Positions 1,588 to 34,449 of a stretch of 37,268 nucleotides of DNA are shown here, one piece after another. The position numbers were made by a program, and so were the translations under genes. This stretch comes from Reclinomonas americana ATCC 50394 (Eukaryota): contig PS015038.1 of the NCBI GenBank assembly GCA_048213135.1, positions 158,825 through 196,092 of the forward strand, read 5' to 3'. How positions within the stretch are numbered: position 1 is the first letter of the stretch; the number at the start of each line of letters is the position of its first letter. The notes below the pieces were generated by a model, which was given only the letters and a program-made list of their open reading frames with translations, searched no databases and was not told the DNA's origin.

Positions 1588-2862
1588 TCATGTGCGCGCG
1601 CTCTGCAGCCGGCTCTCCAGTGACGAATAAAACGCTTGGTCATCCTGCACACGCGTGTTGTTCAGAAACGGGGAAATTCATGCAATGAGAATGGAACGAA
1701 CGGTCAACGTACCTCCTCGTCGTCGTCGTCGGCGGGGTTGGGAATGGCGGTGCCGGAGTCCTTGCGCGCAGAGTACCAGTGATACGAGGCGGAGCCATCG
1801 CGATCGCCTGTGTGCCATCATCGACATGAGCACGGGGACAAAAAGCAGGCTCCACAGAGCAGAGTACGTCAAGCGCAACTGATGATCTTGTGCTGCACGG
1901 CCCAGTTGAGATCGCGCTTCTGCAGGTGCTCCATGCGCGCATCGGGGGCGCCATACGACAGCATGCAAAAGTGCGCGCCAGGTCGCAGCACGCGCATCAC
2001 CTCCTTCATCATGCGCGTGGCGTTCTCCTGCGAGTCGGTGCCGCACAGCAACGCATCCAGCGTGCCCTTGTCCAGCACCAAGTCAAAGTGCTCCGACGGG
2101 AAGTCCAGCTTGCACGCATCCATCGTGTACCCTACGTACGCGCCGTGAGTAACAAGCGGAGAAATCAACACGCGGACGGCTGTCTTGCGCGTGCGCAACA
2201 TTCCATGTTGGGATGCGAGGTGCCGTAGTGCTCCCGCATCTGATCGACGACCACGCTGCTAATGTCAATGTTGATGATCTTCTCGTAGCCGAGCTCGTAC
2301 AGTGCCGCGCTCACGCCTACCAACGTCAAGGAGATGAGTCAGTAAGATAGAAGAAAGAAAGATGGGAAGAGAGAAGGGAGAGAGAGGCGGAATGGAGAGG
2401 GATAAAGAGAAGGGTAAAAAAGGGAGACGATGAGAGACAGCGGATGGAGAACAAGGGGACGTAGGTACAGAGGAGTGAAAAGAGAGATGGAAGGAGAGCG
2501 GGAAGAGAGGGAGGGGGAAAGAACAAGAGAAAGAGAGAGAGAGAGTAAGAAGGGGACGGAGATACAGAGACGAAGAAATACAGAGACGGCAAAAGAGAGA
2601 CAGAAGGAGAGGAAGAGAAGGAGAGGGAGGCACAGAGGGAGAGAAGGAGGGGCACTGCGAGTGTGCGAGTGTGAGTAAGAGAGGGGGAAGAAGACTCACG
2701 AGAATTTCCGCAGCCGACAATGAGAATGGGACTGGACTTGGAGAGACCGGCATCAAACGGCAAATGCGCCTGCAACGACGCAAACGACAGGTACCAGTCA
2801 AAGTGCGTGTCGTTGGCCGCATATCGCTGATCCCAGTACTCGGGCTTTCCGTACTCCGGCAT
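1588..2862 (-). CDS. Class I SAM-dependent methyltransferase (EEF1AKMT4/METTL13 N-domain-like)
   Basis: Motifs YGKPEYWDQRY, ILIVGCGNS, IINIDIS, FDLVLDKGTLDALLCG, RVLRPG. Introns at about 2317-2699, 2132-2199, 1808-1879 and about 1645-1712. The last exon is less certain. Confidence 0.92.
2330..2695. repeat. Polypurine (GA-rich) low-complexity tract in methyltransferase intron 1
   Basis: Almost pure A/G on the + strand for about 360 bp. Confidence 0.9.
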
Positions 2863-3205
2863 GCTAGTTCTAAACACACAATGCACAATGCACACACAAC
2901 AGAGTCAAAATCACTCACATTGCTCTCTCTCTCTTTGTTCTGTCTCTACCTGAAACGGGCTTCTGGGTGACTGGGAACGATGCGAATGCGCTGTTGTTGT
3001 TGTTGATAGTGATCAGATGCGTCCAAGATAGGCCACGTCACTCACTCACACGCAGCGAATGAAAACAAGAGTCAAGGTTGTGGAGGAGAGAGAGAGTGTG
3101 TGTGTGTGTGTAAGAGAGAGAAGAGCGCTCGGTTGTTGCTCACGCGACACACACAAACAGATGGGACGGTGTCGTTTGCAGTTGAATTTTCATCTTCTTG
3201 CACTC

Positions 3206-4608
3206 ATGTGTTGCGTGCGCGTGCGCGTTCTCTCGCGTTCTCTCTGTGTGCCTGTGAGCAGTCTCTCACTTGTGTACACCTGCAGCACTTGACATTCGTG
3301 CAAAGCGCTTTGATTATCGCGTTGATTTGGATGCTCCAGTTGCGTTTTTTATTTGTGACACCCTTTGAGAGCGCCTAAGTCGCCACCTGAGGGCGCAAAA
3401 GTCGCCGCCTGAAGGCACCTTTAGTCGCCATCTTTGCTGCTGTCATCTTGATCGTCATCGTTGCAATCAGGATCAACCCTTCAGTCCTCGCATGTCGTGT
3501 TTCTTGTCACCTTTGAACGACTAAGTTGTCACCTGATGACACCTTTTGGTCAAAACCTGAGGGCACTACAGTCGCCATCTTTGCAGCTGTCATCTTCTTT
3601 GCAATCAGCATCATCCCTTCAGTCCTCGCATGTCGTGTTTTCTTGTCACCTTCGAACGCCTAAGTTGTCACCTAATGCGCCACCTTTGAACGCCTTTGAC
3701 ACCACGTTTGCAGCTGTCATCTTGATCGTCATCTTTGCATTCAGGATCGCCTTTGTCTCGTCCATCGCTCCTCTTGCCACTTTCCTTCTTCCGCCGCCTT
3801 TGCAGCCACACCTCCAGTTGTCACCCTTGATATATCATCTCTTGCCATCGTCCCTTGTCTCGCTCCGTCTCCTTCACTGCTTTCGAGTTGTCACCAGTCT
3901 GCAGTTGTCGCTCATTCCTCGGAGTTTTTCCCTCGTCAGTCTCTGGAGAACACGCATGCGTCGCCGTTTGCGCAGTTCAAACAGTGGTTTCAGCAGTGCG
4001 TGGATGCCGGGGTGAGTGATCCGGCGGCCACGTGCTTGGCCACTGCGGACGAGGCGGGGCGACCGTCGGCGCGCATGGTGCTGCTGAAGGAGATGCAGGA
4101 TGGGCGCGGTTTTGTGTTTTTCACCAACTGGGCCAGCCGCAAGGGCGCGCAGTTGCGTGCGAATCCGCACGCGTCCATGTGCTTCTATTGGGGTGATGTG
4201 CACCGGTCGGTGCGGGTGGAGGGCGTGGTGGAGCAGGTCGACGAGACCGAGTCGGAGGAGTACTTTCAGTTGAGATGTGCTTTCTCTCCCCCACGACAGT
4301 CCACTTGTGTGGGTGACTGATGGCTGGTGCACAGCATGAGACCGCGCGCATCGCAGCTCGGAGCCATTGCGTCGCACCAGTCGCAACCGCTCGAGTCGTA
4401 CGAGGTGCTGCGAGAGCGTGTGCAGGAGCTGGAGCGCGAGTTCGAGGGTCGCGATCCACCGCGACCGGCGACCTGGGGTGGCGGGCGGCTGGTGCCCACC
4501 CGCGTGGAGTTTTGGCAGGGCGACGAGTCGCGACTGCATCACCGCGTAGAGTACGTGCGAGACTCGGTGCACGACGAGGAGTGGAGGCGACAGCTGCTGA
4601 ACCCGTGA
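3206..4608 (+). CDS. PNPO: Pyridoxine/pyridoxamine 5'-phosphate oxidase
   Basis: Exons 3206-3209, 3286-3338, 3940-4268 and 4335-4608 give MSLDIRAKRFDY...SPFAQFKQWF...GRPSARMVLLK...FFTNWASRKG...RPRASQLGA...EFWQG..SRLHHR...LLNP, matching PdxH motifs. The two 5' exons are inferred from frame and motif. Confidence 0.93.
3423..3750. repeat. Degenerate ~140-147 bp tandem repeat (about 2.3 copies) in PNPO intron 2
   Basis: agtcgccatctttgc at 3423 and 3570; tcagtcctcgcatgtcgtgtt at 3481 and 3619; third partial copy near 3706. Confidence 0.85.
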
Positions 4609-4684
4609 TTGAAAACACAATGTGCCATTGCTGCAATGATGATTTTTCACTCCCACCTTCCTTCGAATTCACCCACCCCTTTCC

Positions 4685-7600
4685 TCATTGTGACAACCGC
4701 ACACTCTGCAACTCCTGCTGCATGTCGGTGACCAATCGGAGCGAATCGCCAACGTTCTTGCGCACACCCGACTGCAGCTTGTCCAACTGCGACTCGGTCA
4801 CCACGCCGCCAATGACCTCTTCGCAGGCGGCGATCTGGCCGCTCACCAAGGCCGCCGCCGACTCGCGCAAATGCGTCAGCTGCCGGTCGGCAGTGGCGCA
4901 AAACTCTCGCAGTGCACCCAACGTCAGCGCCGCCGCCTTGCTCGTCTCACCACGCCACACTGCCACACCAGCGCTGGCGTCGGCAGCCGGCGACAGTTCA
5001 GCCCATGAGCCGGCCACTGTGCAGGAGAGAGAAAAAGGTGAGCACCGACGCAGTGCATTCAGGGGGCGCACGACAAAACTGACCTGCTTCCGCGCCGCCC
5101 TTGCCCTTCTTGCCGCCCTTGTTCTTGTTGCCCGCCGAACCCAACGCCACATCCCACACCGTGGGCAGCAGCAACACGGCCCACGACAATTGGTCCGCCA
5201 GCACCGGAGCCACCGTCGGCAACACGTGCCACACCTGCGGGTGTGTGCCGTGAGAAGCCTGTGCGAGAGAGAAACCACTAGAAGGCAGCAACAAACCGGC
5301 TGTCCAGGCCGGCCCAGGAAGTCACTGTAATCCGTCAGCAGCTCGCGGCAGCGCAGAGCCACCGTCACCACGGCGTTGCGCACTTGCAGCGCCGACTGCT
5401 CCTCCGAGGCTTGCACCAGGCGCGATGCCGCCACATCGTGCGCGGCTGCAATGATCGACAAGAAGAAGGTCCAGTCACGCGACTGCCGCTCGCTGACTGA
5501 TGCCTCGGCCAGCGCCGCCTCCACCGCCTGTCGCGCCTGCTGCAGTGCCTCGAGCGCACTCGGAGGTGGTGCGGCAGCACTTGAGCCTGCACACACAGTC
5601 AGTCACCACCAAATAGTGTACACCGTTGTGCAAGCAACGCAACTGGCTCCTTCGTCGACCGACGCGGAAGCCGCCGCACTGCCCTTGCCCTTCTTGCCCT
5701 TCTTTCCGCCACCACCGCCACCACCGCCACCTGCTGGCTTCTTCTCTGCGGCCGCTAACAGCGCCGCCAAGGTGTGCATCAGCAGCACCGACACCGCCGC
5801 TCGCAGACGAATGATGCGCGCTTGTGGTTCGACGGACGCACGCGCGGCCTCCGGCACCAAAAATTTGTGCATCGACAGAGCCTCCACGTCGGTGGGCTCG
5901 TACAAATCAAAAACACTGCGCATCAGGGGTGTCAGCACAACGATACGAGAATGAGTGGCACAGCACACACAATACACAACGTAATGTCAGGCTTGTGCAC
6001 GAGACCATTGCCAAACTCTGCGGATTGCAACCGGGCCACCAACTGGTGATCAATGTTGTTCTGCAGGTACTTGAGTGCGTCCTGCGGTGTCTGCGCATTC
6101 GTGTGCAAATCCACAAGCACCTGCGTGACCGCGCACAGAGTGAGAACACACACACACATCAACTTGTAGGTCATCCATGATGCTGACAACTTACTTTGTC
6201 TACGCGTGCGCCGACGCGCAGTGCGCTCATCTCCAGCCGGTGCTTGAAGCGCGCCATCTCCACCACCTTGGAGTAGGAGCCGGTCGTGAAAGGGAACATG
6301 ATGACTTCGGGGTTCGACTCGTTGTAGTGCTGACGGTGGAATTTCTGCGCGAGAGGCACAAAGATTGAGCACCAGGCAAATACTTCGGAGGAAAGGAGAC
6401 GAGACGAGACCTCCAACTTCTCGTACAGTCCCTGCAACGATGACAGCGCGCCGTACGCCTGCAAGTCGTACGTCACCAGGAAACCGAGTGATTCGCGCTG
6501 CAGGTTCTTCACATCGAGGTCTTTGTAGGCCTCCACCGCCGCCGCCGTGGCACCGAGATGCACGTACAGGCGCAGAAGGAGCAGGCGGAACTGGAAAAAG
6601 TTGGACGAGCGCGCCACACCGGCCTCCAGTGCCGCAATCGCCACCAGCAGAGGCCGCAGATCGTCCTGTTGTCACAATCAGGCACGGCGGACAACACCAA
6701 ACTCGGTGTACACACACAAACCGGCGACTTCATGTAGGCGTCGACGCACGACAGGGCCGCCAGCAACAAGAACTCGTCTCCGTACTGGAACTCGCGTGCA
6801 TCTTTGCGGTACCTCTCCAGTGGCACCAGACTCAAGTACCGCTCGTAGTAGTCTCGAGCCATCGCCAAGTCATCGTCGCGCGAGACGCTGAGTTTGTTGC
6901 GTGAGTACCGTCGCAGCTGCTCGATGCACTTGAGCCGCTGCACGTGCTTCAGGAAGGTGGCACGCACGGCGCCCGGGTCATCGGCTGTGGTCTCCAGTGC
7001 CTCTTCCTGCAGAGGTTGGGGAGTTTGTGAGCACGCAGAATGAAAGAAGTGGGCGCATCAACACGCCCGTACCCGCGTTGGCGATGTCGGCACCGTGGAA
7101 CGCATGCGGTCCAGCAGCTGCGCGACGGCCTCGGCACCAGGCAGACCTGGTGTCCATTTGATGATGGTGAGGTATAAATCATGGCGCAATCAACTCTTCG
7201 ACATGCGCGCACCAACGTCGAGCTCCAGCAGCGCTGACGTGGAGTACGGGCTCATGTCCAAGAAGCACGATGGCTTGTCGCCAAATGTGCCAAAGTACGA
7301 GCCGAGGAGCTCACTCAATCGCTTCTCGCGAATCACGGCCTCCCCGGCAACCGGCAGGTCGCCACGGAGCACGCGCGCTTTCAACTCGATCTCGGCCAGG
7401 AACGGTCCACGCAGCGGGAGAGGCTTGCCCCTCTGCGCCTCCTGCAACTCGCGCAGCAACTCACACACGGCAGCCACAGTGGTGCACACGGGAAGCGCGA
7501 CACCACTCGATCCCGATGCATCACCAGCTGCGCCGAGGTAAATGAGTTACACGAGAATATCGAAAGTGAGTCGGAGAGTGAGCGCACCTGCAGCGGGTGC

Positions 7601-8725
7601 AACGGGAGACTTGGACGGTGGCGTGCCCACCGGCGTCAACGCATGTGGCGGCATGGCAAAGTTCACCATGTCCACACTGACAGTCGCTGCTGGATCGGCT
7701 GTCGACAAGAGAAAATGAGCCGGGGAAGAAAAGAAACAGCCTGCTGCCTGCTTCCACCCACCTCCGGCCGCCGACTCGTGCAACACAGGCAGCGAATCGA
7801 GCAGTGCCATGTGCGTCATCCAGTCGTCGGCATCGATGCACCGCAAGTACAGCACGAAACACGCATTGGCACGCAGGATATCGCCGGTCTTGCGATACAG
7901 GAACGCCAGATCCCGCACACGATCGGCATTGACGCGGAAGAGCGCACCGAGTGGTCCACGCAGCACTTCGGCGGCCTCGGCAGTTTTGCCCAGTCGCTCG
8001 AGAATATCGACATGCAAGCGCACCTGCTCATCCGTGGTCATCCCATTCGACGTGACAAGTCGTGTCATGAATCGCTCCGCCAGCTCCAACAGCCGCTTCT
8101 CCGCCCCGAACTCAACCTGCAGCAGCACCGACGATGCCGTCCACAACAAGTACTGCATGCACCTCTCGATTGAGCGATGATCCACTGACAAGGAGACTTC
8201 TCAACAGGAATACAGGCTTGCCTTGTTCGTGTCAGTCCACTTGCGGAACAAATCAAATGCCGTCTGCTGCGCCTCCAAGAAGCGCGACTGTGACACATGC
8301 AAGGAGAAGAGTCCCTCGCCCAAGTCGCGATCATGCGGAGCTGCAGTGTACGCGCAATCGTACAGCTCCGCCACGCGCTCCCTCCGATCCAACACCTTGT
8401 ACACTTCGGTCAGAATGCGCAGCACACTGGCCAGAGTCGGAGACTCGGCCGACACCTCCTCTGCCAGCAGCAGAGCCTCTTCCTGCACACAGACACACAC
8501 ACAAGCGCGTGTCACACACAGTGGCGGAGAGAGTGCGACATGCAAGACATGGCGCACCCGCGAATCCTGCTTGCTGAGGCAGAGTGCCTTCAGAGCGCGC
8601 AGGTTCTGACTGGAGCGCTGCTTGCTCAGCGCCGACTGGATCTGCTTGAGAGCGCCGCGAGTGTCGCGCCTGTCAATGAGGTCGGTGATTTGCCGAATGC
8701 GATGAAAGTCGGGCTCGTTCATCAT
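4685..8725 (-). CDS. NAA25: NatB N-terminal acetyltransferase auxiliary subunit (NAA25/MDM20 family)
   Basis: N-terminal TPR-like helices, LRGPFLAEIEL, YFGTFGDKPSCFLDM, SSNFFQFRLLLLRLY, YKDLDVKNLQRESLG, GSYSKVVEM. 13 introns reconstructed, one of them GC-AG. Confidence 0.88.
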
Positions 8726-8866
8726 GGTTGTGCAAGGTGCAAGCTGCAAGCGTGCACACTGCCTCCAGTCGCACAACGAAGGCAACACTGACGATTGAAG
8801 GACAACATGATTGCAATACTTCGTGACGTTCAATCACGAGACAACAGACGTCGTCTGCATGCGTCT

Positions 8867-9706: not shown

Positions 9707-10297
9707 CTCGGTGCTGGGGGAGAGTAGCTGCTGGGAGGTGGCGATGGTGATTGTGGTGGTGGAGATTGGTGGAAGAATGCAGAGAGGAGCGGGAAGAGGA
9801 GTGCTGCGGCGGCGGCGGCGCGCACCAGATCGTCGGCGTTCAACACCAGCTCAACAGCGAATGAGGACTTGAACACAGGCTCGTCGCGTGGGGCCAAAAG
9901 GCCTGGCGACTGCGCCGAGCCCATGCTGCAATGAAAATGTCCTACTTCGCTCATCGATTGAATGACTTCGCGTGCACACGTTCATTAAAGCATTACACCA
10001 CCCACCCACCCATCACCGCCGCTGTCCCCTTGTGTGCTACAGTGCGCAGTCTCACAAGCCTGGCTGATTCGACACAGCTCGCTCGCTCGCTCGCTTTCTC
10101 CTGCATCGGCCTTCTTGGCTGGCTTTCTCATCAACAACATCTCCTTTTCCACCAGCTGCTGATGCTCTCGATCTCCTCCTCCTCCTCCTGCTGCTGCTGG
10201 TCGATTCTTATTGTGTTTTTCTTTGTATAACAATCGAGGCAAAAAGTATTCAAACCACATCAACAATAGCAACTCGCGCACATTCTACACAGCAATC

Positions 10298-10542: not shown

Positions 10543-10855
10543 NNNNNNNNNNNNNNNNNNNNNNNNNNNNNNNNNNNNNNNNNNNNNNNNNNNNNNNNNN
10601 NNNNNNNNNNNNNNNNNNNNNNNNNNNNNNNNNNNNNNNNNNNNNNNNNNNNNNNNNNNNNNNNNNNNNNNNNNNNNNNNNNNNNNNNNNNNNNNNNNNN
10701 NNNNNNNNNNNNNNNNNNNNNNNNNNNNNNNNNNNNNNNNNNNNNNNNNNNNNNNNNNNNNNNNNNNNNNNNNNNNNNNNNNNNNNNNNNNNNNNNNNNN
10801 NNNNNNNNNNNNNNNNNNNNNNNNNNNNNNNNNNNNNNNNNNNNNNNNNNNNNNN
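10543..10855. other. Assembly gap (other gaps at 29476-29495, 30200-30219, 35708-35727, 36152-36171, 36405-36896)
   Basis: Runs of N. Confidence 1.
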
Positions 10856-12752
10856 CCCGCGTAGCCTGGGTACGCGGCTACTGGTGGCGGAGCACCGTAG
10901 GGAGCTCCCGACGAACGAGGGCCATACGCCACGCCACCACCGCGCGGCGCACCACGGCCGCCGCGGTAGTAGTCGCGATCTGTGGGGGGAAAAGGAAGAG
11001 AAGGAGGTCAGCAACACATATGCACAAGCACATGGGGCACACATAATCGATCAACGAGCCTCCCTCACCCTCGCGATAGCCACCGCTGCCGCCGGCACCA
11101 CCGGAACCACCACCACCGTAGCCACCGCCGTAGCCACCGCCATACCCGCCACCGTAGCCACCAGCATATGGCGGCGGTGCGTATCCGTAGCCGTAGCCGG
11201 CGTAGGGATCCTCGTAGCCACCGCGAGGGTACTGATCGCGGCCACCGGGGCCACCACGGCCTCCACGCGGCGGTCCAGGGAATCGCGGCTCAGCTGCGGA
11301 GCAGGGGGTGAGGTGAGAAGGGGGAAGGGGGGAGGAGAAGGGAGAAGGGAGAAGGGAGAAGGGAGAGGGGAGAGGGAGGGGAGAGGGAGGGGAGAGGGAA
11401 GTAGAGGAGAGCAGAGGGGAGAGAAACGGCGGGAGGAGATGAGAGAAGAGATGAGATGAGAGGAAGACGGCGAGGAAAAGTGCGGCGAAAAGCAGGGATT
11501 AAGGGAGAGTGCAAGAGAGAACGCAGGACAGGGACAAGGGGTGGGAGGAGAAGGGAGGAGAAGGGAGGAGAAGGGAGGAGAAGGGAGGAGAAGGGAGGAG
11601 AAGGGAGGAGAAGGGAGGAGAAGGGAGAGAGAGAGACAGACAAACCTCGCTTGCACTCGCACTGCTTGCCGTCAATCTCGAAAGTGCCCTTGTTGATGAC
11701 GCTGTCCACAGTCGCCTCATCGTCAAACGTCACAAAGCAGAAGCCGCGCGGCTTGCCAGTCTCGTGATCACGCATGATCTGCACCGAGGTCACTGGGCCG
11801 TACTTTTCAAACACCGAGCGCACCGTGTCTGCACAAAAGCACAAAGTCAGCAACTGCCGTCTGCAGAGAGAAGCACGACAGAACAGACCTTCGTTGGCAT
11901 CCCACGAGAGACCGCCGATAAAGATCTTGTTCGTGCGCAGCGCGTACTGCTGGCTGTAAATCTGCTCCTTGGGCACAGCGCGCTTCACCTCAATCTGCAC
12001 ACAGAATGCATGAGAAGGACAAGTGACAAAAAATGAAGAAAAAGGAATGAGCGCAACTCGGCGTCCGTCCAGCAAGTGCTCCGGGTGGTTAATGATGCGC
12101 TCCAGCGTCTCGCGGTTGGCGCACTCGACAAACCCAAAGCCGCGTGGCTTGCCCGTCATGCTGTTCAACATGACCATGCCTGTGTGCGCCCACCAACAAA
12201 GAAACAACACATCAGCACGTGAGCAACACAATGTGAGAACAAGCGGAAGAGTAGAATGCGAAGAGAGGAAGGAGAAAAGTGAAGAGACAATCCAATTTGG
12301 ACTTGCCACTCTGCAACCTCGTTCTCTCAACACACAAACGCAACAGTGTCGCAGCTCGCCAAACTTGCTAAAGTAGTCGCGCAGTTGATCTGTAAACGCG
12401 CAACTTTTGTTTTAGAGTCGCCGCCACTTACAAACAGACTCAACACTTGCAAAGCGCGCACACACACCTTCTGTGGTGTCCCACGAGAGGCCGCCCACGA
12501 ACACCTTGCTGCTCAACACAAACAAACACAGAGTAAGACACACACGCACACAAGAAAGCAAACTTGTTGTTGATGTCCCGCCATCTCCCTGCAAACACAC
12601 TCGCTCTTTCTCCTTCTCTCTCCAACCACACGCAACTGCTCTCCACCGGGACCACCCGGGGCACCACCTGCACCACTCGCGGGCGCCGCAGCCGCCGAGC
12701 CGCTCGCCATGCCATGCGCACCCTCTCCGTCCGGTCGCACTTCGTCAGCCAT
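10856..12752 (-). CDS. Two-RRM RNA-binding protein with Gly/Tyr/RGG-rich tail (hnRNP A/D, Musashi/DAZAP1-like); 3' end lies in or beyond the gap
   Basis: KVFVGGLSWDT..KPRGFGFV (RRM1), KIFIGGLSWD..KPRGFCFVTF (RRM2), then GGYGGGYGG and RGG low-complexity sequence. 7 introns before the gap. Confidence 0.93.
11551..11620. repeat. Perfect 10-bp tandem repeat (AAGGGAGGAG)x7 within an intronic purine tract (about 11310-11640)
   Basis: Seen directly in the sequence. Confidence 0.95.
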
Positions 12753-12887: not shown

Positions 12888-14404
12888 ATGACCGGCGGCG
12901 GGCATCCGATGTCGCCACCGTCAATGGAAGGCCGTCGACGCGGTCTTTGTTGCGGCACGCTTGCGCTCACACTATGCATCACACTCATCCTGCTCGCGGC
13001 AATGCACGCCGCTCGCCACGCGTCGCCCCTGACAAGCCGACGCTCCTCCTCCACCGCCTCCTCCTCCTCCACATCCTCCTCATCGTCAGGTGACTCATCG
13101 CGAGTGGACTCGCCACGATCGCTGCCGTCGGCGTCGTACAAGTCGGCACCTGCACGACTGTTGCGATTGTGGACACGTGGTCCGCGGCTGGGCGAGCCGG
13201 GCTCGGCCAACTGGTGGACTCCGGAGCTGTGCGATGAGCTGCCGGTGTGGCTCGACGCCACGCGGAAACGCATCGATGATGTGGTCGAGAATGCCAATGG
13301 GTTGCAGTTGCGTGGACAAGGCAAAAGGGACATGTCGACTCGTTGCTGACTCTTGCACGAACACACAGCGATGCACTGTCGTACTCGGCCAAGGCGTCGT
13401 TTGTGCAGCAACTGAAACCGGTGCTGGCCAAGCATGCGATTCGATCGACGGTGACGGTGTTGGAGTTGCCACAGGCGATCCTGTTTACGGTGGTGCAGGT
13501 GGCGACGCGCGACTACTCCGAGTGGGTGCACAACTGGGTCTACTATACGCGGCTCAACACGCCGTTCCAGTTGCCGTTGATTGTGTGCGTCGATGAGAGC
13601 TCGCGCAAGTTTCTGCTGCAGACCGGCCTCGACGATGAGCTGTTGTATGTCGATCAGAGTGGGTGGCGTGCGGAGGCGGTCGAGTCGCGTGCGGTGGAGC
13701 TCAAGTACTTGTACGCGCACCTGATGCTGGTGCACGGGTATCAGGCGCTGTACTCGGACTGCGACGTGGTCTTCCATCGTGACCCGCTGCTGGCGGTGAT
13801 GAACCTGCCGTTCGACTTCCCGTCGTACGACGAGCCCACCAAGCCGGCGCGCTGGCAACCGGCGCTGCCCGACTGGTACGCTCTCAGCGACGCCACCGAT
13901 CCGAAGACGACGCACTGGCGTCTGCCGTTCTCGACGCGCGTACGTGCGCCGTACCTCAACCTGCCCACCGCCTGCATCACCTACGCCCGCTGTCCCAACT
14001 GGCCACACAACTACTGCCTCTCGACCGGACTGTGGCTGGCGCAGCCGACCGCGCGGACACGCGCACTGCTGGCGCAAATGATTGACCTGATTCCGCGTTT
14101 CGCGCTGTGGGAGCAAAATCTGTTCAACTCGATCGTGGACCTGCACGTGCTGCAGGACGGACTGGTGCTGGTGACGCTGCCGCCAGACCGCGTACTGAAT
14201 GTGCCCGTTGGCGTCGATGCCATGCGGCTGGTCGGTTTTGCGTGTCGCGAGAGCGAACGTGTGGCCTCGCATGTGGGCCACCGATCCGGCAAGCGGAAGA
14301 AGCAAGTATTCATCGACGGTGGTCTGTGGAAGGGAGCGTCGTTGATGCTTCCGCCGGCGCCGGGATCGGAGGTTGTTGGCGGTGGGGAGGATAAGAATAG
14401 GTAG
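12888..14404 (+). CDS. Type II membrane nucleotide-diphospho-sugar transferase (GT-A fold, GT77-like)
   Basis: N-terminal TM segment (LCCGTLALTLCITLILLAAM), Ser-rich stem, DxD motif YSDCDVVFHRDP, CLSTGLWLAQPT, WEQNLFN. One intron at 13307-13368. Confidence 0.8.
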
Positions 14405-20710: not shown

Positions 20711-20749
<39 letters not shown>

Positions 20750-23866: not shown

Positions 23867-26800
23867 TTACTTGAAGAGCTGTCGGGCCGGTATTGTTGGT
23901 GGTCGGTCTCCGGGACTAGCACTGGCACTCCGCGCAGTGCCACCAGACGAGTGACCCCCACCGGCTCGCCGTCCGTGCCTCGGTGGTGACAGGCGAGACA
24001 CGAGGTGCTTTACATATCCACGCTCCATCTGGTGTCGAGCAACAACAATCAGTGAATGTGCTGGTTGAGAGACAAAGAGACCACGCACCGCTCGCATGCT
24101 CTCCTCCAGATTGCCGCCCACTTCCACGACTCGACGGATCGTGCTGATCTGCATGTCGAGACGCTCCTGTTCCACCTGTTTCCGACTGATGGTCTCCAGC
24201 AGTGGCCGTGCACTATCTGTTGCTCCTTGTGGTGTCCGCCTATCATAACAGCCAGCAGCAGTGAGCAGGAGATTAATGGCACACTCTCAAAAATAACGTT
24301 GATTATGAAACATACCCGACGATCATATCCAGCAAGTTGGGCGAGTCGTACAGTTTGGCTGCGTCGTCGTCAACGTGAGAAGCACGCACACTATCAACAA
24401 CAGCAAGCAAGCAAATGCTCACCTTCTTCTCTGGCCTCAATCTCCTCGTCGACGTCGATGGTCAGCTTTGGGCCTGAGTCACCGGCCTCCTGCACGTCAA
24501 TAGTGTCAGATCTCGATATGCCGCAGTCACGCATCTCTCTACAGCAAACCTCGAGGGCTGCCATGATCAGCTTGTGCTTCTCGCCGCGCACAAAGTCCAA
24601 CGAGAGGACCTGCCACTTGCCGAGGACTCCGGCATCGACAAGCAAGCGCACCTGCCAGCGACAGATTCAGATACATGTACAGTTGAAACCTCAAAGGCAC
24701 ATCACAGCTTCGCTGCTCACTTGTTCTGTGCGCGTGGAGCTGGTCATGATGCCGCGAATGTGACTGCCATCGTCTTTTGGTGTGATAACAATGCCGCGAT
24801 AGTCATCGGCCACATCCGGCACGCTGATGCGACTCTGTGACAGCGCCGTCGGCATGGGTGGCCGTCGCACACTTGGTGGCGCAGAGCCGGAACGCGACGA
24901 ACTGTGCAGAGTGCAGTGTGAGGCAACAATCGCGGAGAAGACCGAGGGTGGTCGGCGACGCACGTTCGTGTCGATGACGAGGCCGTTGAGTCGGCACCGC
25001 CCACTACGAGTGGCGCAGGACTGCCGCCGGCCGCTGCCACCATGCTGGGACGACCACGCCGACCAAATCGCGTGTTTGCACCCATACCAAAGGCAGTGGT
25101 CGACGAGCGTACCGGTGGTGGTGGGCCTGCGCGCACGACATCCCATGATCAGCGAGAGACGCGAGAATAAAGCAACATCACCAATGCACACAAACACGCA
25201 CCACGCGAGTCAACACTCCACCACGGATTGCTGTGAAACTCGTCCATCATGCCACGGATCTTGTCTTCACTCACGCCCTTGTTGCCGTCCAATGCTCCCG
25301 CTGATGCCTGTTGCAGCATGTCCTCCATGGCGCTGGATCGACACGTGCGATGAGCAACGGTAGAAGATGAAAGTGAGGGAGAGGAACACACACCTGATGA
25401 TATCACGAGTCTGACTCGACGATCGCCCTCGTCGGCTCGACTGCGGCGCCGAACCCTCGCGCGACGATGGTCGACCGCTCCACGTGCGACTCGCCGATGC
25501 TGTGCGATACATTGAGTGAGCACCTTGGTCGAAGACAAAACCACACATCGCCACCAATCAAGAAAACGCACAGGGTGCCGTCGGTTGCAGGAGAATCGAC
25601 GGGTCGTACTGGTACGGCTTCCACTCCTCGGCACTCGGACCACCGGCTCCATGCAGCGGCATGCCGGCGGCACTGGATGCGCTGCTGGATGGTACGGTGG
25701 CGCCCGCAGTCTCACTGGTGGTGCAAAGATGAGCACACTGCATATAATAGCCCAACATTGTGTTTGCGGAAAGACGCAACGCCGTCGTAGCGGCAGTGGT
25801 GACTGACACTGGTGGAATGTAAAAGAGGGAGCCCAGGCACGCCTCCGTTGCATTCGGCTCGTTGGAGGCTAAAAACAGCTCAAAGTTCCAGAAGCGCACA
25901 TCGCCTTCGGTGACACTCAACAGCGTCTTTCGCGGATCGTTGAATAATGACAGTCTGCGAGCGGCAAGCCGTCAGTCCAATGAAAAAATGGGAGGAGAAC
26001 ACGGCAACAGAGTCCGTCGCACCGTTTCAACATTTGCTCGTCCAGACAGCGCGGCTCCGATACGCGAAGATCGGCCGGATCCATGGAGATAATGTAGTCG
26101 GGCAGAGTCGATCCTTCGACCATTTTCTGTGACCAGTGTAAGCAACCATGGGGGAGTGCGCAATGGAAATACGTGCTGTGGGATCGCACCGTGTTGCCCT
26201 TGTGACGGAAACGAATGTACTTGCGGTCGGGTCGCTCAATGGGTACGATTGCGCCTCGGCGGAAGGCCTGCTTGAGGAAAATCAGACGGATTTTGCCCTC
26301 GTCGTCACCTGCGTGGCCACGAGCGTCAATGCAAGTTTCGCGGAGAGTGACAGTGAAAAGTGCAACGCACCTGTCACGAGCACTTGTGTCTGTCTGTCGA
26401 ACTCGAGCGAGGTGATGGCCGACGGCGGCACAGCCTCGGGATCGTCAGTGTATGAAATGCCGCGTTGCATGTGCTGCTCGTCGGGGAACGACGGATTGCG
26501 GAAGCTGCGGACAATGATAGTGAGTCGGGTGTCACAAAAGACATGTAGAGTCACACGCAACGTCATGAGACGGGTGAACTTGTTCTGTGCCGGATTCGTC
26601 GAGTAAAAGGTCAGCATGCCCGACGAGTCGCCCACGGCCAAGACTGGGAAGTGACTGAGCAGACGGATGCACAGGATATCCTATCAAAGACGATCATGAG
26701 CAGCGTGCATGTGAAAGCAGTGTCATCGTCACCAAGTTGCTCACCGCTTCGCCCTCGTGGTGCACCGTGCCGAGGACGCTGCCATTGCGAATGTCGAATG

Positions 26801-29800
26801 CAAATGCCTCGTGGCTGCCGGCAGCCGCACCAACGCTGAGCTCTTGTGACAGCGACAGCATGAGCAGCTCCACTTGCGACTGGTTCTCCTTGCGACGGCG
26901 ACGTGCCAGTTGCTCGGAGGGTTTGTTCGTCTCGCGTTCGCCGAGAATCTTGCCCTGCATCAGCAGCGACATGATGTCGACTCGTTGCACTGCGGGCGCG
27001 GGGAAAAGTCAGAAAGGAGAACACCGGTGCGTGACACCCGGCGACGAAACTGCGAGAGCGATCGCCGTGGACCGTGCCGCGTCGCAACGCCGCCAGATCC
27101 TCTGCTGTGTCGCTCATGTCGATTGACATTTTGCTGGCCTGTGGGTTGCCAAAGTCAGTCGACGCACCGAGACGCACACTCACTGGAAAGCAAAGTGCCA
27201 CTGACCGACGTGTGCACGCGTGTCTGAGCGCTGCCCACGAGCAGGCGTTCCGGACCGGCGATGCGATGCATCAACTCCATTCCGTCTTCACCGGCGCTGT
27301 ACAAGTGCTGCATGTGTGTGTCGAGTGAGGTGATCAGTCCACTCTTTCTTTCGCCAACACCGTCACTTCCGCAATCACGCAACAACTGTGCCATCCCACG
27401 AGCTGGAGACGAGGCAGTTTTCCGTCAATGCAAACGCAATGGAGGAGACCTCGGCGTAGTGCGGCGCCAGTTCTTGAATGACGGCACCCGTCGAGTTGTT
27501 GTGTTCCTGTGGCACAGCGTCAGCATCATGATTCACGCCGGGTGAGCGACAAAAAGAGCTGCAGTACCGTGAGATCGCCATTCGAGTTGCCGACGTAGAA
27601 CTTGCGACCGGTCAAGTCGAGCGAAAAGGCGGTGATCTCGTGGCGACTCACGTCCTTGAAGGTGTCTTGAATGCGCCCGGTGACGGCGTCCCACACGAGA
27701 ATGGTGGTGTCGGAGCACGTGTAGATCAGGTAGTTGACTGGATTGTAGGCGGCAATGGAGACCGACGATCGCAGCTCCTCGTCTTGTCGAGCGGCGGCGG
27801 TCGCTGCATCGGTGCCACTGACCGCATTGATGTCGACCTTGACCTTGTCCTCTTCGGACTTTTTGGCCACTTTCTTGCTGCAAGCCAGACTCATCAGCCA
27901 GGCAAAGAGGCAAAGAGAGAGAAAGAAAGAAAGAGAAGAATGAAAGAAAGAAAAAAGAAAGAAAGAAAGAAGAAAGATGAAAGAGAAGAATGAAAGAAAG
28001 AAAGAGAAAGAAAGAATGGAAGAAAGAAAGAGAAATGGCGTGGCATGCGCGCAACTCAAAGTAGAACAGCTGGCGGCCTCCACCCGCAATACGACGTAGG
28101 GGTGGAATGTACTTGAACGTGCGCAATCCACCGTCGGCGCCGTCCGTGAAACTGCGCTCCATAAAGGTCTGCACGCAGCGGAAGTTGCGACTGGAGACAC
28201 TCAACAGTCAGCACGGGTAGACGGTTGGGGAGAGGCTGCTGCACTACGCAACGTGTCCCACAGCTTGAAGGTTCCCGACTGCACACAAAACACCAGCAAC
28301 AGTGAGGGAGTGGATCGCGGTCAGCACTCAATTTCACACAAACCACATCGGCGGTGATGACTTCTGGCGTGTCCGGGATGGAGCAGACGCTGACCAGCGG
28401 CGCCAAGTGACCCTCCAAGCGGTACAGTCGCTTGCAAATCAGCGGATCCCACTGGCATGACACATAAGTGAGCAAAACGAAGGGAGGGAGTCACATGGCG
28501 ACATTCGGAGCGCTAACAAACCACATAGGCGTGATGTTCGTAGCCGGAGCTGAACAGCATGTTGTAGAGATTGTCGTAGCTGAGCGACGCCACGCCCTTG
28601 GTGTGATCGCGCAGCACGCCTTTGGTGGTCAGCGTGCGAATGTCCCACAGACGAATGGCTGCGCGGCGCGCGCGCGCGTGAGTGCGATGAAAGAGAAGCG
28701 AACACTGCAAAGACAAACACGCACTGCGATCGAGGGAAGCCGAAATGACCATGTCGCGTTCGCCGACAGTGAGCATGTCTTGTACGGTGTTGGAGTGAGC
28801 GGAGATCTTTTCCGTCGCCCGAATGTCGTACGTGGAGATCTGCAAGTGGAGGGTGAGCTGCTTGAACCAAGGCGAGGCTCTGTGTTTCGATCTCACCGTC
28901 TTTTTCACGCGCCACACAGACAGGTCGCCGGTGATGCTGCCAGAGAAGAGACGCTCTTCATCTCGCGACCATTTCACGGCCTGTGATAAGAGGAGGGAGT
29001 GAGACTCTACAAAGGAGAAAGGAGGGCTGACCCCTGATCAACAAACCGTCTGCGGCAGACCCACAGTGGTGGTGGAGACGCTGCGAAAGAGCGAGCCGTC
29101 CCACAGCACGAAGCGGCCCTCCGAGTGCGACGACACGACGAGGTTCTCGTGCACAATGTGATCGGCGGCCACGACGGCGCCGCGTGCGTTTGGTCCTCGC
29201 AGGTCGCAAATCATTTCGGAGGTCTGGTGGAGGGGATTTAGGAGAAGGGAATAAAGGAGAAGGGAATTAAGGGGAAGGGAATTGAGGAGAAGGGAATGAG
29301 GGAGAAGGGGGAAGGGCGAAGGGGGAAGAGCGAAGAGGAAGAGCAAAGGGGGAAGACGAAGGGGGAAGGCGAGGGGGGAAGACGAGGGGGGAAGACGAGG
29401 GGGGAAGACGAGGGGGGAAGACGAGGGGGAAGACGAGGGGGAAGAGCGAAGGGGGAAGACGAAGGGGAAGACGAANNNNNNNNNNNNNNNNNNNNGGGGG
29501 AAGACGAAGGGGGAAGACGAAGGGGGAAGACCGAAGGGGGAAGAGTGAATGGGAAAGACCAAGGAGTGGAGTGTGAAAGCTGACCTGCGCATTGTACAAC
29601 TTGAAATGCTTCTCCTGATCGGCCACAAACAAAAACGTCTCCAGGCCCGGGAAGAACCACACACGATCGACGCCACCCGGATTGTGCCGCGTCTCATCGG
29701 TGACATTCGGCGCCGGCTCAAACTCCTCGATATCAGCAAACTCCTCACTGGAGAACAGCAAGCCGCCCTCAATCAAATACGTGTTGAACTCCTCCCACGA

Positions 29801-30132
29801 GAGACCGCCGTCCGAGTTGGCGTCGATGCGATGAAACAGGTCGATGAGACTGTCGACGCGAAACAGTAAGAAACATGCATTGTTGTCAGAGAAGAGACTG
29901 CTGCTGGACGCACCCATCGTGCACATCCTCGCCACTGGCCTCGAATCGCCCGTGCAATCGCTCACCCAGCAGGTTGGCAAACTGGCCAAGTGACAGCTCA
30001 CCGCCAGCCTGAGAATGAAGGAGAAGGTGGGTGACAAAGGGGAAGAGAGGAGGACAAGAAGAGACATACTGAAGGCTGAGCGACTGAGAGACTGAGAAAC
30101 TGTGACAGAGAGGGGGACTGGGAGACTGAGCG

Positions 30133-30199
<67 letters not shown>

Positions 30200-30657
30200 N
30201 NNNNNNNNNNNNNNNNNNNAGAGAGAGAGAGAGAGAGAGAGAGAGACTGAGACAGAGACTGAGACAGAGACTCAGTGACTCAGAGAGAGGGGGAGGGAGG
30301 GAGAGACTGAGCGACTGGGAGAGAGAGAGACTGAGAGAGACTGAGAGAGACTGAGAGAGACTGAGGGCGAGACTGAGCAACTGAGCGATTGTGCACTGAG
30401 AGACTGAGACCGTGCGACTCAGAGACTGAAACACACTCAGAGAAGCACACAGACACACACTCACAAACCTGTTCCCACTTGCGACGAAACACCAAGAAAT
30501 CGGTGTCATTCAGCGACTTTACAATGCGCGTCGGCAGCGCCTCAACTCCGCGTTTCGCCCGCTCAATCTCCGCACGCGATGGAGACGCGCCCGAAGGCGA
30601 CGACGCGCCAAGCATTTTAAAACGGGCAGTTGCGCGGGTGTCACCCGCCTCCATCAT
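23867..30657 (-). CDS. EF-hand + WD40 repeat protein (WDR49/WDR64/EFCAB8-like, probably ciliary)
   Basis: EF-hand LFHRIDANSDGGLSWEEFNTYL, then many WD repeats (SASLDR..IRLWD, LRDHTKGV, LEGHLAPLV..FKLWDTRNFRCVQTF, ILVWDAVTG) and a low-complexity C-terminus. About 21 introns. Confidence 0.8.
29232..29560. repeat. Intronic purine minisatellites (about 15-mer GAAGGGAATTAAGGG-like and 12-mer GGGGAAGACGAG-like units)
   Basis: Seen directly; interrupted by a 20-N gap. Confidence 0.85.
30060..30440. repeat. (GA)n microsatellite flanked by GAGACTGA-type variant repeats, intronic
   Basis: Pure (GA)n at about 30135-30246 across a gap. Confidence 0.9.
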
Positions 30658-30904
30658 GTCAATCAACGAGTGTCACCGACGCACATCATGATCGCTTTGC
30701 GCAAGAGGCGGGCGGAGGAGAGCAGCACTCTGAGTGTCATGAGAGAGGTGCATTCGACCAGCGAGGAAAGACGAGGCATTCTCCGGGGCAGCGGGTGTCA
30801 CCTGCCTCCATCATGTGTGTCAACGAGTGTCATGGCCGCCCATCATCCGCACTGGTTATTGGCTTTTCAAGTACGCGCGCGACAACTGTGTGAGAGAGAG
30901 CAGG

Positions 30905-32893
30905 ATGCATCGTCGACTGCGGCCACCAGTTGCGTCCGACACGAGCACACATGGCCAATGTGTGTGTGACTCACTACCCTTGACAAACAGCCTGTGAGGA
31001 CGACTGGCTCACTGCAATCGCTCTCCTCGCCGGCCTCGTCGTTGGAGTCAAGCTCGTCTTCGACTGCGTATTCGTTTGGGCAACTGGTGGCGGCCATGGA
31101 CGATCATATGGTGCGCTCGACGTCGTATGATCATGAGGCGGTCGATGGGCCGCAGCTGGAGCAGCGGAGGTACACGGCCGAGGTCGATGCGCTGGCCAGT
31201 GTGCTGTTGCAGCGTGAGAGGTGGAGCCAGGAGGTGCGTGATGGAAAGAAGAGAGAGCGAGAGGCAGAGGGAATATCGCATTCACGTCGTTGTGCGAACA
31301 GAGGCACGAGCGGGAGAGCATTCGTGTGCGCGATGAGGCGACGGTGTTGCGGGAGCAGCTGGAGGAGGCGAAGCAGGTCGGTGGTGGCGTGTGATTGGTC
31401 ACTGTGTGTTCGCTTTCCGCCTCAATCGCGATCGGTTGTTTGGGCAGGCGCTGCTGGTGGCGCAGGCGGAGAACCGAGCGCAGCAGGCGACTGTGTCTGG
31501 TTTGCGAGCGGTGCTTGAGCAGTCGGCGACGCAGACGTGGCAGTCGGTGGATCATGTGGCGGTGGTCATGCTGCGGGCGGCGGTGGATAGCGATGCCGAT
31601 TCGGACGCGGTGGTCGCCTTGAGCGAACCGTACGTCGGTGTCGTGCAGATTCTTCCTCTCCTTCCCTTGCTGACAAAGCGTGCGTGCGTTCATAGACTGG
31701 TGAGGCAGCTCTTTCCGATCCTGCAGCGAGCGCAGCGGGATCCGTCGGCGTCGCCCTCCGCGACCACGGTGTATTCGATTGAGCGTGCTGTCGAGTCACT
31801 GGCGTCGGTGAGAGGGCACTCGCATAGGAGAAAGTAGCATGTCGTGTTTTCTGAACGCGTCCACCAGGTGGAGCTGGAGCTGGCCGCACTCGTGCATCGC
31901 TCGCTTCCGTCCGGCTCACCATCACGGTCGCCCTCGGCTGCGCGCACCCTCGGATCGCCGTACTTGCCACTGGTCAAGACCGGAGAGCCGCTTGCGGCGC
32001 GACTGCACGCGCACGTGGATCAACTGCGCGATCTGGTGCGCCAATGCCACGCAACCATGCCGCGGCACAGCGTGAGCGCCAACAGCAGTCCAGCCAGCGG
32101 CAGCGGCAGTGTGTACAGTTCTCCGTCTGCCGGCTCACCACCGCGATCGCCGCTGATGACCTCGTCGGTGACGCGGTCGCCACCAGTAAGCCGCGGTCTC
32201 GCCGTGCTGCGCGACGAGACAAGGGAAAACTTTCTGCGTGGTGATCGGAAAATTACCGAGGTGCGGATCGTGCAAGTCTCCTTCTCCTTTTGTTTTCTTC
32301 GCTGACGGTGGTTGATGGGCAGATGGAGACGGCACTGGCCGACGCCACTTCGGTGCTCTTGTTGCGTCAGCGGACGCTGCGCGAGGCAACGGCCTGTGTG
32401 GGCGGAGCTGCCGACGATATCAGTGCGCGACAGCAAGTGGAGGCACTGCGACGTGAGGATCGCGTGGCGGGAGCGCAGGTTCGCTTTGTGTGCTTCCCGT
32501 GTGAGTGTCATCTGCATCTCATCTCCTCTCCGTGTGCGTGTCGGCAGATTGTTGCCGAGTTGAACCGCCTCCACCAGCTGACGGTGGAATCGTGGGAGGC
32601 CTCGAGAGAGTGCACGCGGTTCTTTGATCGGTTAGCACGCGCGCAGCCGGAGACCGCGGAGCTCATGGCGCTGCGGGTGCGTGTGTGTGCATCAAACACA
32701 TTGTGTCTTCGCCCCCTCAACTCTCTTCTCTTTCGCGCAGGAGGAGGAGCGACAGCGCGCCGACGAAAGACGGCAGCGCATCGAGCGAAGCCACGAACAG
32801 CTCGAGGCACTGCAGCGCTCACAGTCTGACTTGGACGCCGCATGGGCCGACCTGTCGCTCCGCTGGCGACAATTGCGCGCCACCGTCCTCTGA
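30905..32893 (+). CDS. Hypothetical coiled-coil protein
   Basis: MHRRLRPP + PVRTTGS via intron 30929-30990. 8 introns join E/Q/R/L-rich helical exons through to TGA at 32893. Confidence 0.75.
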
Positions 32894-33011
32894 GTGAAAC
32901 ATAAACCAAGAGTTTTTCCAGCATACCATATGCATGGGTGTTATTCTGCGCGTTCCACAGTTCTCTCTCTCGCACAGATAGAGAGGGGCGCAGGCTTGCG
33001 CGCGCTCACAC

Positions 33012-34449
33012 TTACAGGTCCTTGAGCAGGTTCTCTGCGCTCGTGGTCTCGAACGATCCCGGAGGCTCGACGTGGATGGACTGCGGAGAAGGGTGAGTGA
33101 GAATGAAGAGGGAGGAGAAGTAAAGCGAGGAGGAGCACGTGTACCTCGATGCGACCATTGTCGACAATCATCGAGTAGCGCAGCGAGCGAGTGCCGAGGC
33201 CAGCCACCGACAGATCGACAGCCAAGCCGAGAGCGTTGGTGAAGGCGCCCGATGGATCGGCCAGCATGGAGACCTTGCCGACGCACAACATGGACTCACC
33301 CCACGCCTTCATGGTGAAGGGGTCGTTCACCGAGCTGCGGGAAGGGGAAAGGTGAGCGAAGAGAGGAGAAGAGAGGTGAGGAGGGGAAGGGGGAGAAGAA
33401 AAAGAAGGAGAAGAGGGAGGAGGAAGAGGAAGAAGAAGAAGGGGAGGAGGAAGAAGAGGAAGAATGGCAAGGAGAGAGAGAGAGAGAGAGAGAGAAGAGA
33501 AGAAGAATGGCAAGGAGGGGGATGAGAAGACGAAGGAGAAGGAAAAGGAAAGGAAAGGAGAATGAATAGAAGAAACAGAAGAACAAGAAGAAGAGGAAGA
33601 AGACGAAGAACAAGAAGAGAAGAAGGAGAGGGGGAGAAGAAACAAGAAGAGAAGAAGGAAAAGAGGAAGAAGAACAGGAAGAACAAGAAGAGAAGACAGA
33701 GAAGAGGGGCGAGGTGAAAGAACAGAGTGATTGTCAGAAAACACGGAAAGCAGAACCAGGTGTGAATGGAGGGGAATGAATGAATGCAGACAACAGAGCG
33801 CGGGAGAGAGAAGTGAGAAAAGAAGAGGAGAGAGGCAGCGCGGAACAACACCACGAACGAGCACTGCATCAGTTGTCTTGCATTGAAAGAATCGCGATGC
33901 AGAAAAGGAAGAGGAAGAGAAGAGAACCACTGGAGGCAACGCTGATGCTGCTGATGCAGAGGAGCAAGCAACACGCCCGACAAAAAAGAGAGAGAGAGAA
34001 AGTGAACGCAACATGCAGTACACTTCCTGCACGCCCTTCTTCTTCTTGAGCTCCTCTGCATGGTCGCGGAACGAGGGCACCTGTTGACACACACCAGTAA
34101 GCGAGAGAACACACACTCTCTTTGCCTCACACACACGCGCACGCAACATGCTTCAATGAGCACACAGGCGTGAACGCGCCAGGCACACCGACCTGATGCA
34201 ACACACACACTGTGAGCAAGCACTGATGCAGTGTACGCCTGTGTGTGAGTGTGTGAGAGCACACATGCAGACCAGTGCGACTTTGCGATTGCGGAAGAGC
34301 TCCTCAGTGGAGACAGCGGGTGGCTTGGAGCCGGGTGCCAGGAAGAGCTGCACACCCGGAACAATCACGTTGCTGCCCTTGGTCACTTGCTTGGCAGCAG
34401 CGGCGGAGAAGGAGCGGCGAGTGAAGGGGAGAAGAGCGCGGGCAAACAT
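33012..34449 (-). CDS. PRDX5: Peroxiredoxin, PRX5/type II family, with probable mitochondrial presequence
   Basis: MFARALLPFTRRSFS presequence, VGVPGAFTPVCSLKHVP, VYCISVNDPFTMKAW, MLADPSGAFT, RSLRYSMIVDNG. 4 introns. Confidence 0.92.
33340..33990. repeat. Long GAA/GAG purine tract in peroxiredoxin intron 3
   Basis: Nearly pure purine on the + strand over 33340-33720, purine-biased beyond. Confidence 0.85.

Follow-up and report, generated by a model that had tools for sequence, protein, structure and literature searches.

A GTTGCG(T/C) class of 5′ splice sites that is not preceded by G in a 37-kb stretch of Reclinomonas americana, possibly read one nucleotide out of register

Introduction

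Can the last base of an exon be coupled to the register in which the following 5′ splice site (donor) is read? The question is raised by a stretch of 37,268 nt from Reclinomonas americana ATCC 50394 (contig PS015038.1, 158,825-196,092), hereafter the window, whose own numbering is used below. According to an original prediction made from its sequence, donors that start with GTT and carry G at intron position +6 never follow an exonic G, and a shift of register by one base would compensate for their weak exon ends. In the gene models of the window, the association of GTT/+6G donors with a non-G base at exon position -1 is confirmed. As to its cause, we see about an even chance that these donors form a second 5′ splice-site class, H/GTTGCG(T/C) (H, any base but G; the slash marks the cut), recognised one nucleotide out of register, likely by U1, and accounting for about one fifth to one quarter of the introns of the window.

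Results

Donors of the GTT/+6G type are not preceded by G

The window is gene-dense eukaryotic DNA with about a dozen genes, many short introns and a GC content of 0.49-0.63 per 2-kb stretch. Introns were catalogued with a self-written Viterbi gene finder trained on the window, combining a 3-periodic coding model, GT..AG introns and terms for acceptor, branch site and length; they are computed gene models, part of them checked by homologue alignment. Five variants of the gene finder were run, one without any donor model (donor-blind). Set A holds the 52 introns identical in all five runs, including the donor-blind one. Set B1 holds 76 hand-curated introns, whose models all translate without stops, and the extended set adds 16 low-confidence introns of a gene with low GC content at third codon positions (GC3), giving 92. 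As in the original prediction, class-2 donors start with GTT and have G at +6 without G at +5, and class-1 (ordinary) donors have G at +5.

In set A, G precedes none of 12 class-2 donors (A six times, T and C three times each), 27/33 class-1 donors and 3/7 other donors (Fisher p 6.5e-7). The donor-blind run alone (76 introns) gives 0/12 class-2 donors against 30/41 donors with +5G (p 5.1e-6), and set B1 gives 0/19 (A9, T5, C5) against 43/51 (p 3.5e-11). In the extended set, the counts are 0/20 and 51/61. The predicted absence of G before such donors was thus found in each set, and the contingency of the -1 base against donor class in the window models bears out that there are two donor classes. 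Class 2 makes up between 12/52 (set A) and 19/76 (B1) of the introns. Seen from the exon end, 48 donors of B1 follow G; 43 of them keep +5G, as had been proposed, and none carries the heptamer GTTGCG(T/C), which is found in 19 of the 28 donors that follow another base (+5G in 8 of the 28). The rule is indeed one-way: 8/51 class-1 donors of B1 follow a non-G base, and both examples cited in its favour held up, C/GTGAGT at 2699 by homology and A/GTAAGT at 6194 by its presence in all five runs. Among the GTT/+6G donors that the prediction listed, 1879 and 4269 were confirmed by homology, 5643 and 30929 recur in all five runs and 13307 in four of five.

The pattern can also be seen in the bare sequence. 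GTTGCGT occurs 22 times on both strands, against about 4.5 expected for a random 7-mer by our own arithmetic. Genes hold 22 of the 30 sites of the form GTTGCG(T/C) in sense orientation and 3 in antisense, and the other 5 are intergenic; 16 of the 22 sense-strand sites are donors of curated models. With no gene model needed, a single one of these 22 is preceded by G, and that site is exonic. When the motif is relaxed to GTTGNG, 13 of 102 sites follow G, all of them antisense to a gene, exonic without a downstream branch site and acceptor, or intergenic. Outside the GTT class, +6G does occur after G, since three donors on the reverse strand, each in all five runs, have it without +5G: 6410 (G/GTCTCG), 26732 (G/GTGACG) and 27567 (G/GTACTG).

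The class-2 donors, with two class-1 donors for contrast, are as follows (last four exon bases/first intron bases).

1873-1879 (-): ATCA/GTTGCGC, intron 1879-1808, methyltransferase gene; all five runs, collinear with homologue P0020 and others
2193-2199 (-): GAAT/GTTGCGC, intron 2199-2132; all five runs, junction gap-free against homologues
3210-3216 (+): ATGT/GTTGCGT, possible donor of intron 3210-3285, PNPO 5′ end; only in the run with up-weighted donors, frame-consistent, unverified
3339-3345 (+): TCCA/GTTGCGT, possible donor of intron 3339-3939 (601 nt); frame-consistent, unverified
4269-4275 (+): TTCA/GTTGAGA, intron 4269-4334, PNPO; all five runs, alignment to human PNPO
5637-5643 (-): GCCA/GTTGCGT, intron 5643-5587, NAA25-like gene; all five runs, 1065-aa model stop-free
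5974-5980 (-): TTAC/GTTGTGT, intron 5980-5916; four of five runs, the donor-blind run taking a GT 3 nt downstream
12051-12057 (-): CCGA/GTTGCGC, intron 12057-11995, two-RRM hnRNP-like gene; all five runs, gap-free BLASTP
12338-12344 (-): CACT/GTTGCGT, intron 12344-12180; all five runs, gap-free across residue 67
12630-12636 (-): AGCA/GTTGCGT, intron 12636-12509 (128 nt); frame-consistent only with acceptor 12509, unverified
13307-13313 (+): TGCA/GTTGCGT, intron 13307-13368; four of five runs, the donor-blind run taking a 35-nt intron
14757-14763 (-): GAAC/GTTGCGT, intron 14763-14693; all five runs
17453-17459 (-): AGTC/GTTTCGT, low-confidence class-2-like donor, intron 17459-17388; seen only when a single-gene parse was forced on the low-GC3 gene
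25774-25780 (-): CGGC/GTTGCGT, intron 25780-25715, EF-hand/WD40 gene; all five runs
26555-26561 (-): TGAC/GTTGCGT, intron 26561-26505; four of five runs
27044-27050 (-): CGCA/GTTTCGT, intron 27050-26990; two of five runs, the others having a 46-nt intron from 27035
27377-27383 (-): AGTT/GTTGCGT, intron 27383-27308; only in the run that merges both halves of the 1382-aa gene
28049-28055 (-): TTGA/GTTGCGC, intron 28055-27878; all five runs
28246-28252 (-): ACAC/GTTGCGT, intron 28252-28191; all five runs
30929-30935 (+): ACCA/GTTGCGT, intron 30929-30990; all five runs
34006-34012 (-): GCAT/GTTGCGT, intron 34012-33335 (678 nt), peroxiredoxin gene; collinear with 17 bacterial peroxiredoxins
34141-34147 (-): GCAT/GTTGCGT, intron 34147-34081; all five runs, junction gap-free against peroxiredoxins
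2694-2699 (-): TCTC/GTGAGT, contrast, ordinary register after non-G, intron 2699-2317; collinear with homologues
6189-6194 (-): CAAA/GTAAGT, contrast, ordinary register after non-G, intron 6194-6121; all five runs

Several candidates were discarded. A start-codon artefact at 2918 was removed from set A, the intron at 35630 was dropped from the models, and the unverified candidates 9704 and 20670 were left out. A CT-repeat 'gene' at 21119-21713 was spurious, the gene finder having been misled by CT/GA microsatellites. In addition, up-weighting of the donor scores led to too many GTTGCGT calls (34544, 12636-12585), which were not used.

Homologous proteins place the cut before GT

Collinear homology fixes seven class-2 donors, at 1879, 2199, 4269, 12057, 12344, 34012 and 34147, all after non-G. 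It also fixes seven other donors (1712, 2699, 11645, 11888, 12467, 33144 and 34272), six of which follow G (0/7 against 6/7, hand-computed Fisher p 0.005). A homologue of 61% identity, and others besides, align collinearly with the methyltransferase gene through all four of its junctions; the aligned part includes a C-terminal exon, which would exist only with a real last intron. The exons flanking the 2199 donor match positions 13-48 and 53-96 of Pfam Methyltransf_25. The hnRNP-like gene aligns without gaps to two plant homologues (P0018 and P0019) over four RRM junctions and a fifth just after the RRMs. The 12057 junction falls at residue 108 of this gap-free BLASTP alignment, and RRM_1 positions 31-66 begin at residue 3 of the exon that follows the 12344 intron. 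For the upstream intron, the model with 12636-12509 scores 194/197 bits against the homologues, with fewer gaps, and the two-intron alternative 191/197, a difference that is not decisive.

Human PNPO (1nrg_A) is matched by exon 1 up to residue 158 and by exon 2 from residue 161, which corresponds to residue 2 of exon 2; the split codon at the 4269 intron and residue 1 of exon 2 occupy human residues 159-160. The four-intron peroxiredoxin model reaches a mean of 141.8 bits against 17 intron-less bacterial homologues, compared with 125.9-138.5 for three alternative models. Only a cut before GT restores the split codons at 4269 and 34012. A cut at CAG/TT with a correspondingly slid acceptor was rejected: only 5/19 acceptors are followed by a G as first base of the next exon, and split codons are fixed by homology. 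At the level of predicted proteins, these alignments show that class-2 introns are cut at GT, with the junction fixed for seven of them. Metagenome scans with P0020 and with exon 13370-14401 found no DNA of relatives, and a protein homologue search with that exon found no homologous proteins.

A near-fixed heptamer opens otherwise ordinary introns

The class-2 donor is a near-fixed heptamer, GTTGCG(T/C). In the 19 class-2 introns of B1, +4 is G in 18, +5 is C, next to T at +3, in 17, and T stands at +7 in 14; the G at +6 is part of the class definition. The pair GC stands at +4+5 in 16/19, and GC is also the commonest pair at +3+4 of class 1 (16/51). Likewise, T at +7 is paralleled by T at +6 in 33/51 class-1 donors, and the commonest ordinary donor of the window is GTGCGT.

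Class-1 donors of B1 have the form GTNNGT, with C or T at +4 in 41/51 and A in 9/51, and with G (25), T (13), A (7) or C (6) at +3. This composition is a poor fit to positions 5-6 of standard U1, and it may be linked to the switches in +4 preference that Parker, Fica and Simpson 2025 (PMC11732430) connect with N6-methyladenosine in U6.

Beyond the donor, the two classes look alike. The median intron length is 66 nt in both, a CT[CGT]A[CT] branch motif lies about 17-20 nt from the intron end in 18/19 class-2 and 38/51 class-1 introns, and the acceptor is CAG in 18/19 and 48/51. Because length, branch site and acceptor match, class-2 introns are of the ordinary major type, with another donor. 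When the 76 curated introns were compared all against all by BLASTN, only microsatellite matches between long introns were returned, and the 19 class-2 introns share no sequence past the first seven bases. They do differ in phase, 9/18 class-2 introns being in phase 2 against 9/49 class-1 introns (p 0.014). Among exonic GT dinucleotides, those after the second codon base are least often preceded by G (9%).

The exon end fits a register shifted by one

The exon ends of class-2 donors were compared with the class-1 profile in three ways: with -1/-2/-3 in the canonical alignment (which is also that of a bulged U), shifted by one so that they stand for -2/-3/-4, and without constraint. Log-likelihoods are -75.6 (shifted), -106.7 (canonical or bulged) and -80.4 (no constraint) for B1, and -48.8, -65.4 and -50.9 for set A. 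Compared with the background before exonic GT, CA at -2-1 is enriched (7/19 against 7.1%, p 2e-4), as is A at -1 (9/19 against 20%, p 0.007), and G at -1 is depleted (0/19 against 26%, p 0.003). After correction for phase, 4.2 G would be expected among 18 class-2 donors, with P(0) = 0.006. Hence, the part of the original prediction that reads these donors one base over agrees with the composition of the exon end. A special coupling to the -1 base is not needed: ordinary donors rarely have G at -2 (3/33 class-1 donors of set A, giving P(0/12) = 0.28), which largely explains why a shifted donor is never seen after G.

Duplex energies were computed with the 11-mer of the standard U1 5′ end (AUACUUACCUG), from which the organism's own U1 may differ, for the canonical, the shifted and the bulged register. 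Of the three, the shifted one gives the most favourable energy in 12/19 class-2 donors and is never worse than the canonical one. In a scan of U1 positions 5-6, G at position 5 ranks first for both classes. The best-fitting variant, with GC at 5-6, gives -8.7 kcal/mol for class 1 and, for class 2, -7.0 shifted and -5.2 bulged. Taken together, the exon-end fit and the energies favour the shifted register as the best of the U1 readings and disfavour the bulge.

Several points weigh against a shifted reading by U1. With the standard sequence, the mean class-2 energy is only -1.1 kcal/mol shifted (canonical 0.0, bulged -0.5) against -6.1 for class 1, 7/19 class-2 donors find no favourable duplex in any register, and the class-2 C opposite U1 nucleotide 5 does not pair. 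The shift itself thus fits, but the energetic compensation of a weak exon end that had been proposed is doubtful through standard U1. On the exon side, the advantage of the shifted fit over no constraint is small, 4.8 nats in B1 and 2.1 nats in set A. In B1, where G at -2 is found in 10/51 class-1 donors, P(0/19) = 0.015 is borderline, and there are fewer G than a pure shift predicts. Class 2 is also far narrower than a shifted class 1, which allows TT, GT, CA and others at +3+4. A possible G-preceded counter-example lies at 3077 (+), TCAAG/GTTGTGG, which would be in a 5′ untranslated region: it lies in non-coding DNA between two divergent genes and is followed by a CTCAC branch motif and, 84 nt on, by a CAG. 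As to the data, the p-values are not an independent test, the hypothesis having arisen on the same 37 kb, and the gene finder made faults, mostly a GT picked 3n bases off the true donor (e.g. 33138, 7737, 11042). In most of the faults seen, a true ordinary donor after G had been replaced by one after another base, so that the faults weakened the association and did not create it.

Alternative explanations

Recognition might instead act on the intron side alone. GUUGCGU would then be a local donor class with a strong intron side and a free exon side, read by the ACAGA region of U6 at a later step, by another small nuclear RNA (snRNA) isoform or by a protein; AG/GT donors, needing no heptamer, would lose it, and the missing -1G would reflect this seesaw and not -2/-1 pairing. 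Such a reader would account for the near-invariance of the heptamer (GC at +4+5 in 16/19), for the poor pairing of standard U1 in every register and for the small gain, 2.1-4.8 nats, of the shifted exon model over no constraint; the 19/28 non-G donors of B1 that are class 2 are what an intron-strong class should show. What it does not predict is the exon preference, that is, CA in 7/19 donors against 7.1% (p 2e-4), the excess of A at -1 (p 0.007) and a G count of 0/19 that is below exonic background (p 0.003), also when corrected for phase. Given that no candidate reader is identified either, we regard intron-side recognition as possible but unlikely. A bulged U would keep canonical pairing of the exon and of +1/+2, with U at +3 (or +2) bulged out and +4 to +7 pairing as +3 to +6. 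Its intron side fits equally to that of the shifted register, and Tan et al. 2016 (PMC4856993) tabulate 68 predicted human sites with a bulge at +2/+3 and 51 with one at +3. It predicts, however, that G should stand at -1 as often as it does in class 1 (84% of B1), where 0/19 are observed; with a log-likelihood of -106.7 against -75.6 and energies of -0.5 against -1.1 kcal/mol for standard U1 and -5.2 against -7.0 for the best-fitting variant, the bulge seems very improbable.

A local or annotation artefact would mean that a rule drawn from 37 kb, about a dozen genes and self-made models fades genome-wide. The models were built from the window sequence, donor errors of the gene finder needed correction by hand, and hypothesis and test share their data. 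On the other hand, the effect is present in the donor-blind run (0/12 against 30/41), in the homology-verified subset (0/7 against 6/7) and without gene models (sense GTTGCG(T/C) after G once in 22, at an exonic site), and the errors found mostly weaken it, which makes an artefact improbable in our view. Finally, a repeated heptamer at intron starts could betray a related intron family (introner-like elements) or U12-type introns with a donor of their own. The consensus of U12-type donors is RTATCCTT, from which the class-2 donor differs. With nothing but microsatellite matches in BLASTN of the 76 introns, sharing limited to the first seven bases in class 2, and branch site, acceptor and length as in ordinary introns, this origin is hardly credible.

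Other features of the window

The window contains 885 N. A gap at 10543-10855 removes the 3′ end of the hnRNP-like gene, and the remainder lies near 36.1-36.9 kb by open reading frame (ORF) statistics. Scans of the whole window for Rfam families and tRNAs found none.

At 8153-8221 (-), a 69-nt GC-AG intron (CAAG/GCAAGC) joins two fragments of the gene finder into an ORF of 1065 aa with 13 introns and no stops; judged by eye, its predicted product looks NAA25-like. The region 23867-30615 (-) was first modelled as two genes, which the class-2 intron 27383-27308 links; the merged model probably represents a single EF-hand/WD40 protein of 1382 aa with 28 introns. The large gene at 14523-20405 (-) has a GC3 of about 0.55-0.65, against ~0.75 elsewhere; its donor and branch signals are weaker, several of its acceptors are TAG, and only a forced parse yielded a model of it, with 19 introns.

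Four introns of 352-678 nt (33335-34012, 30009-30468, 2317-2699 and 11294-11645) are long because of CT/GA microsatellites inside them. A candidate 5′ end of the PNPO gene lies at 3206-3939 (+), with an ATG at 3206 and introns 3210-3285 and 3339-3939, whose GTTGCGT donors follow T and A; the second of these introns contains tandem repeats of about 110 nt. Across this unverified site, the frame-consistent model would translate as MSLDIRAKRFDYRVDLDAP/SLENTH, presumably akin to PNPO N-termini.

Discussion

If class-2 donors are indeed read one nucleotide out of register, the last two exon bases together with the intron's +1G would take the role of the usual (C)AG, and intron positions +3 to +7 (UGCGU) that of +2 to +6 of GTGCGT. 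U1 snRNA would be the likely reader, its 5′ end pairing in the same way as at human shifted-register sites. The absence of G at -1 would then be the ordinary avoidance of G at -2, and the class would be used where the exon end cannot supply a G, half of the class-2 introns lying after a second codon base. Since standard U1 pairs poorly with UGCGU, the U1 of this organism, or one of its isoforms, would probably differ from it at nucleotides 5-6 or 8. We consider it likely that UGCGU is read by a U1 specific to the lineage or by some other factor, and offer this as a prediction and not as a finding.

A stronger version of the shifted reading is a dual-register donor code, in which U1 or a second isoform would be complementary to UGCGU (G5, C6 and possibly A8, giving a perfect match to CA/GUUGCGU), and at least one fifth of all introns would be bound one nucleotide downstream of the cut. 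We hold this code to be tentative and rather unlikely. Were it true, introns would be free to occupy those codon positions that do not allow a G at the exon end.

Shifted U1 pairing is described only for human 5′ splice sites in those parts of the literature that were consulted. A limited search on the GTTGCGT/GUUGCGU motif, on variant U1 5′ ends and on the shifted register in protists found nothing on splice sites. If shifted pairing serves one fifth of the introns genome-wide, R. americana would offer a natural case of large-scale separation between the place where a donor is recognised and the place where it is cut, and would bear on which snRNA (U1, U5 or U6) sets donor choice. It would also predict that the 5′ end of U1, usually thought invariant, co-evolves with splice sites. 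In addition, gene finders that score donors with one matrix would mis-annotate such genomes, as our own did until it had learnt the class.

The mechanism looks to be of a known kind, and its frequency and the fixed heptamer look new. Human shifted-register sites are rare and atypical; the window class, known here from sequence alone, makes up 12/52 to 19/76 of the introns. In the human shifted (+1) register (Roca and Krainer 2009, as cited and drawn in Tan et al. 2016, PMC4856993), splicing takes place at GU and the U1 pairs are moved by one position, so that +1G faces U1 C9 and exon -1 takes the place of -2. The test oligonucleotide of that paper, ACA/GUCAAGUAUA, has a non-G base at -1 and G at +6. 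As far as this source goes, the window class shares with such sites the cut at GT, the non-G base at -1 and the G at +6. It differs in that the human AAGU pairs well with standard U1, whereas the GCGU of the window does not.

Human sites with a bulge at +2/+3 (listed by Tan et al. 2016, PMC4856993, after Roca et al. 2012) likewise have an extra U after GU and the downstream G/U moved from +5/+6 to +6/+7. In contrast to class 2, with 0/19, they keep canonical exon pairing, which favours G at -1. U12-type introns, too, form a second class by their donor, whose intronic motif is long and fixed and whose exon side lacks a consensus; the window class has the branch site and acceptor of the major class and a motif unlike the U12-type one.

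Parker, Fica and Simpson 2025 (PMC11732430) describe a 'seesaw linkage' between the 5′ and 3′ sides of the donor, with AG//GUNNN and NN//GURAG as major classes. The window follows the same logic, a weak exon side going with a strong intron side and the two strong sides rarely together: -1G is found with GTNNGT, and non-G mostly with the heptamer. Whereas the classical partner of a non-G exon end is +5G within GURAG, the window class, intron-strong but out of step with the cut site, has C at +5 and its G at +6, after an extra U.

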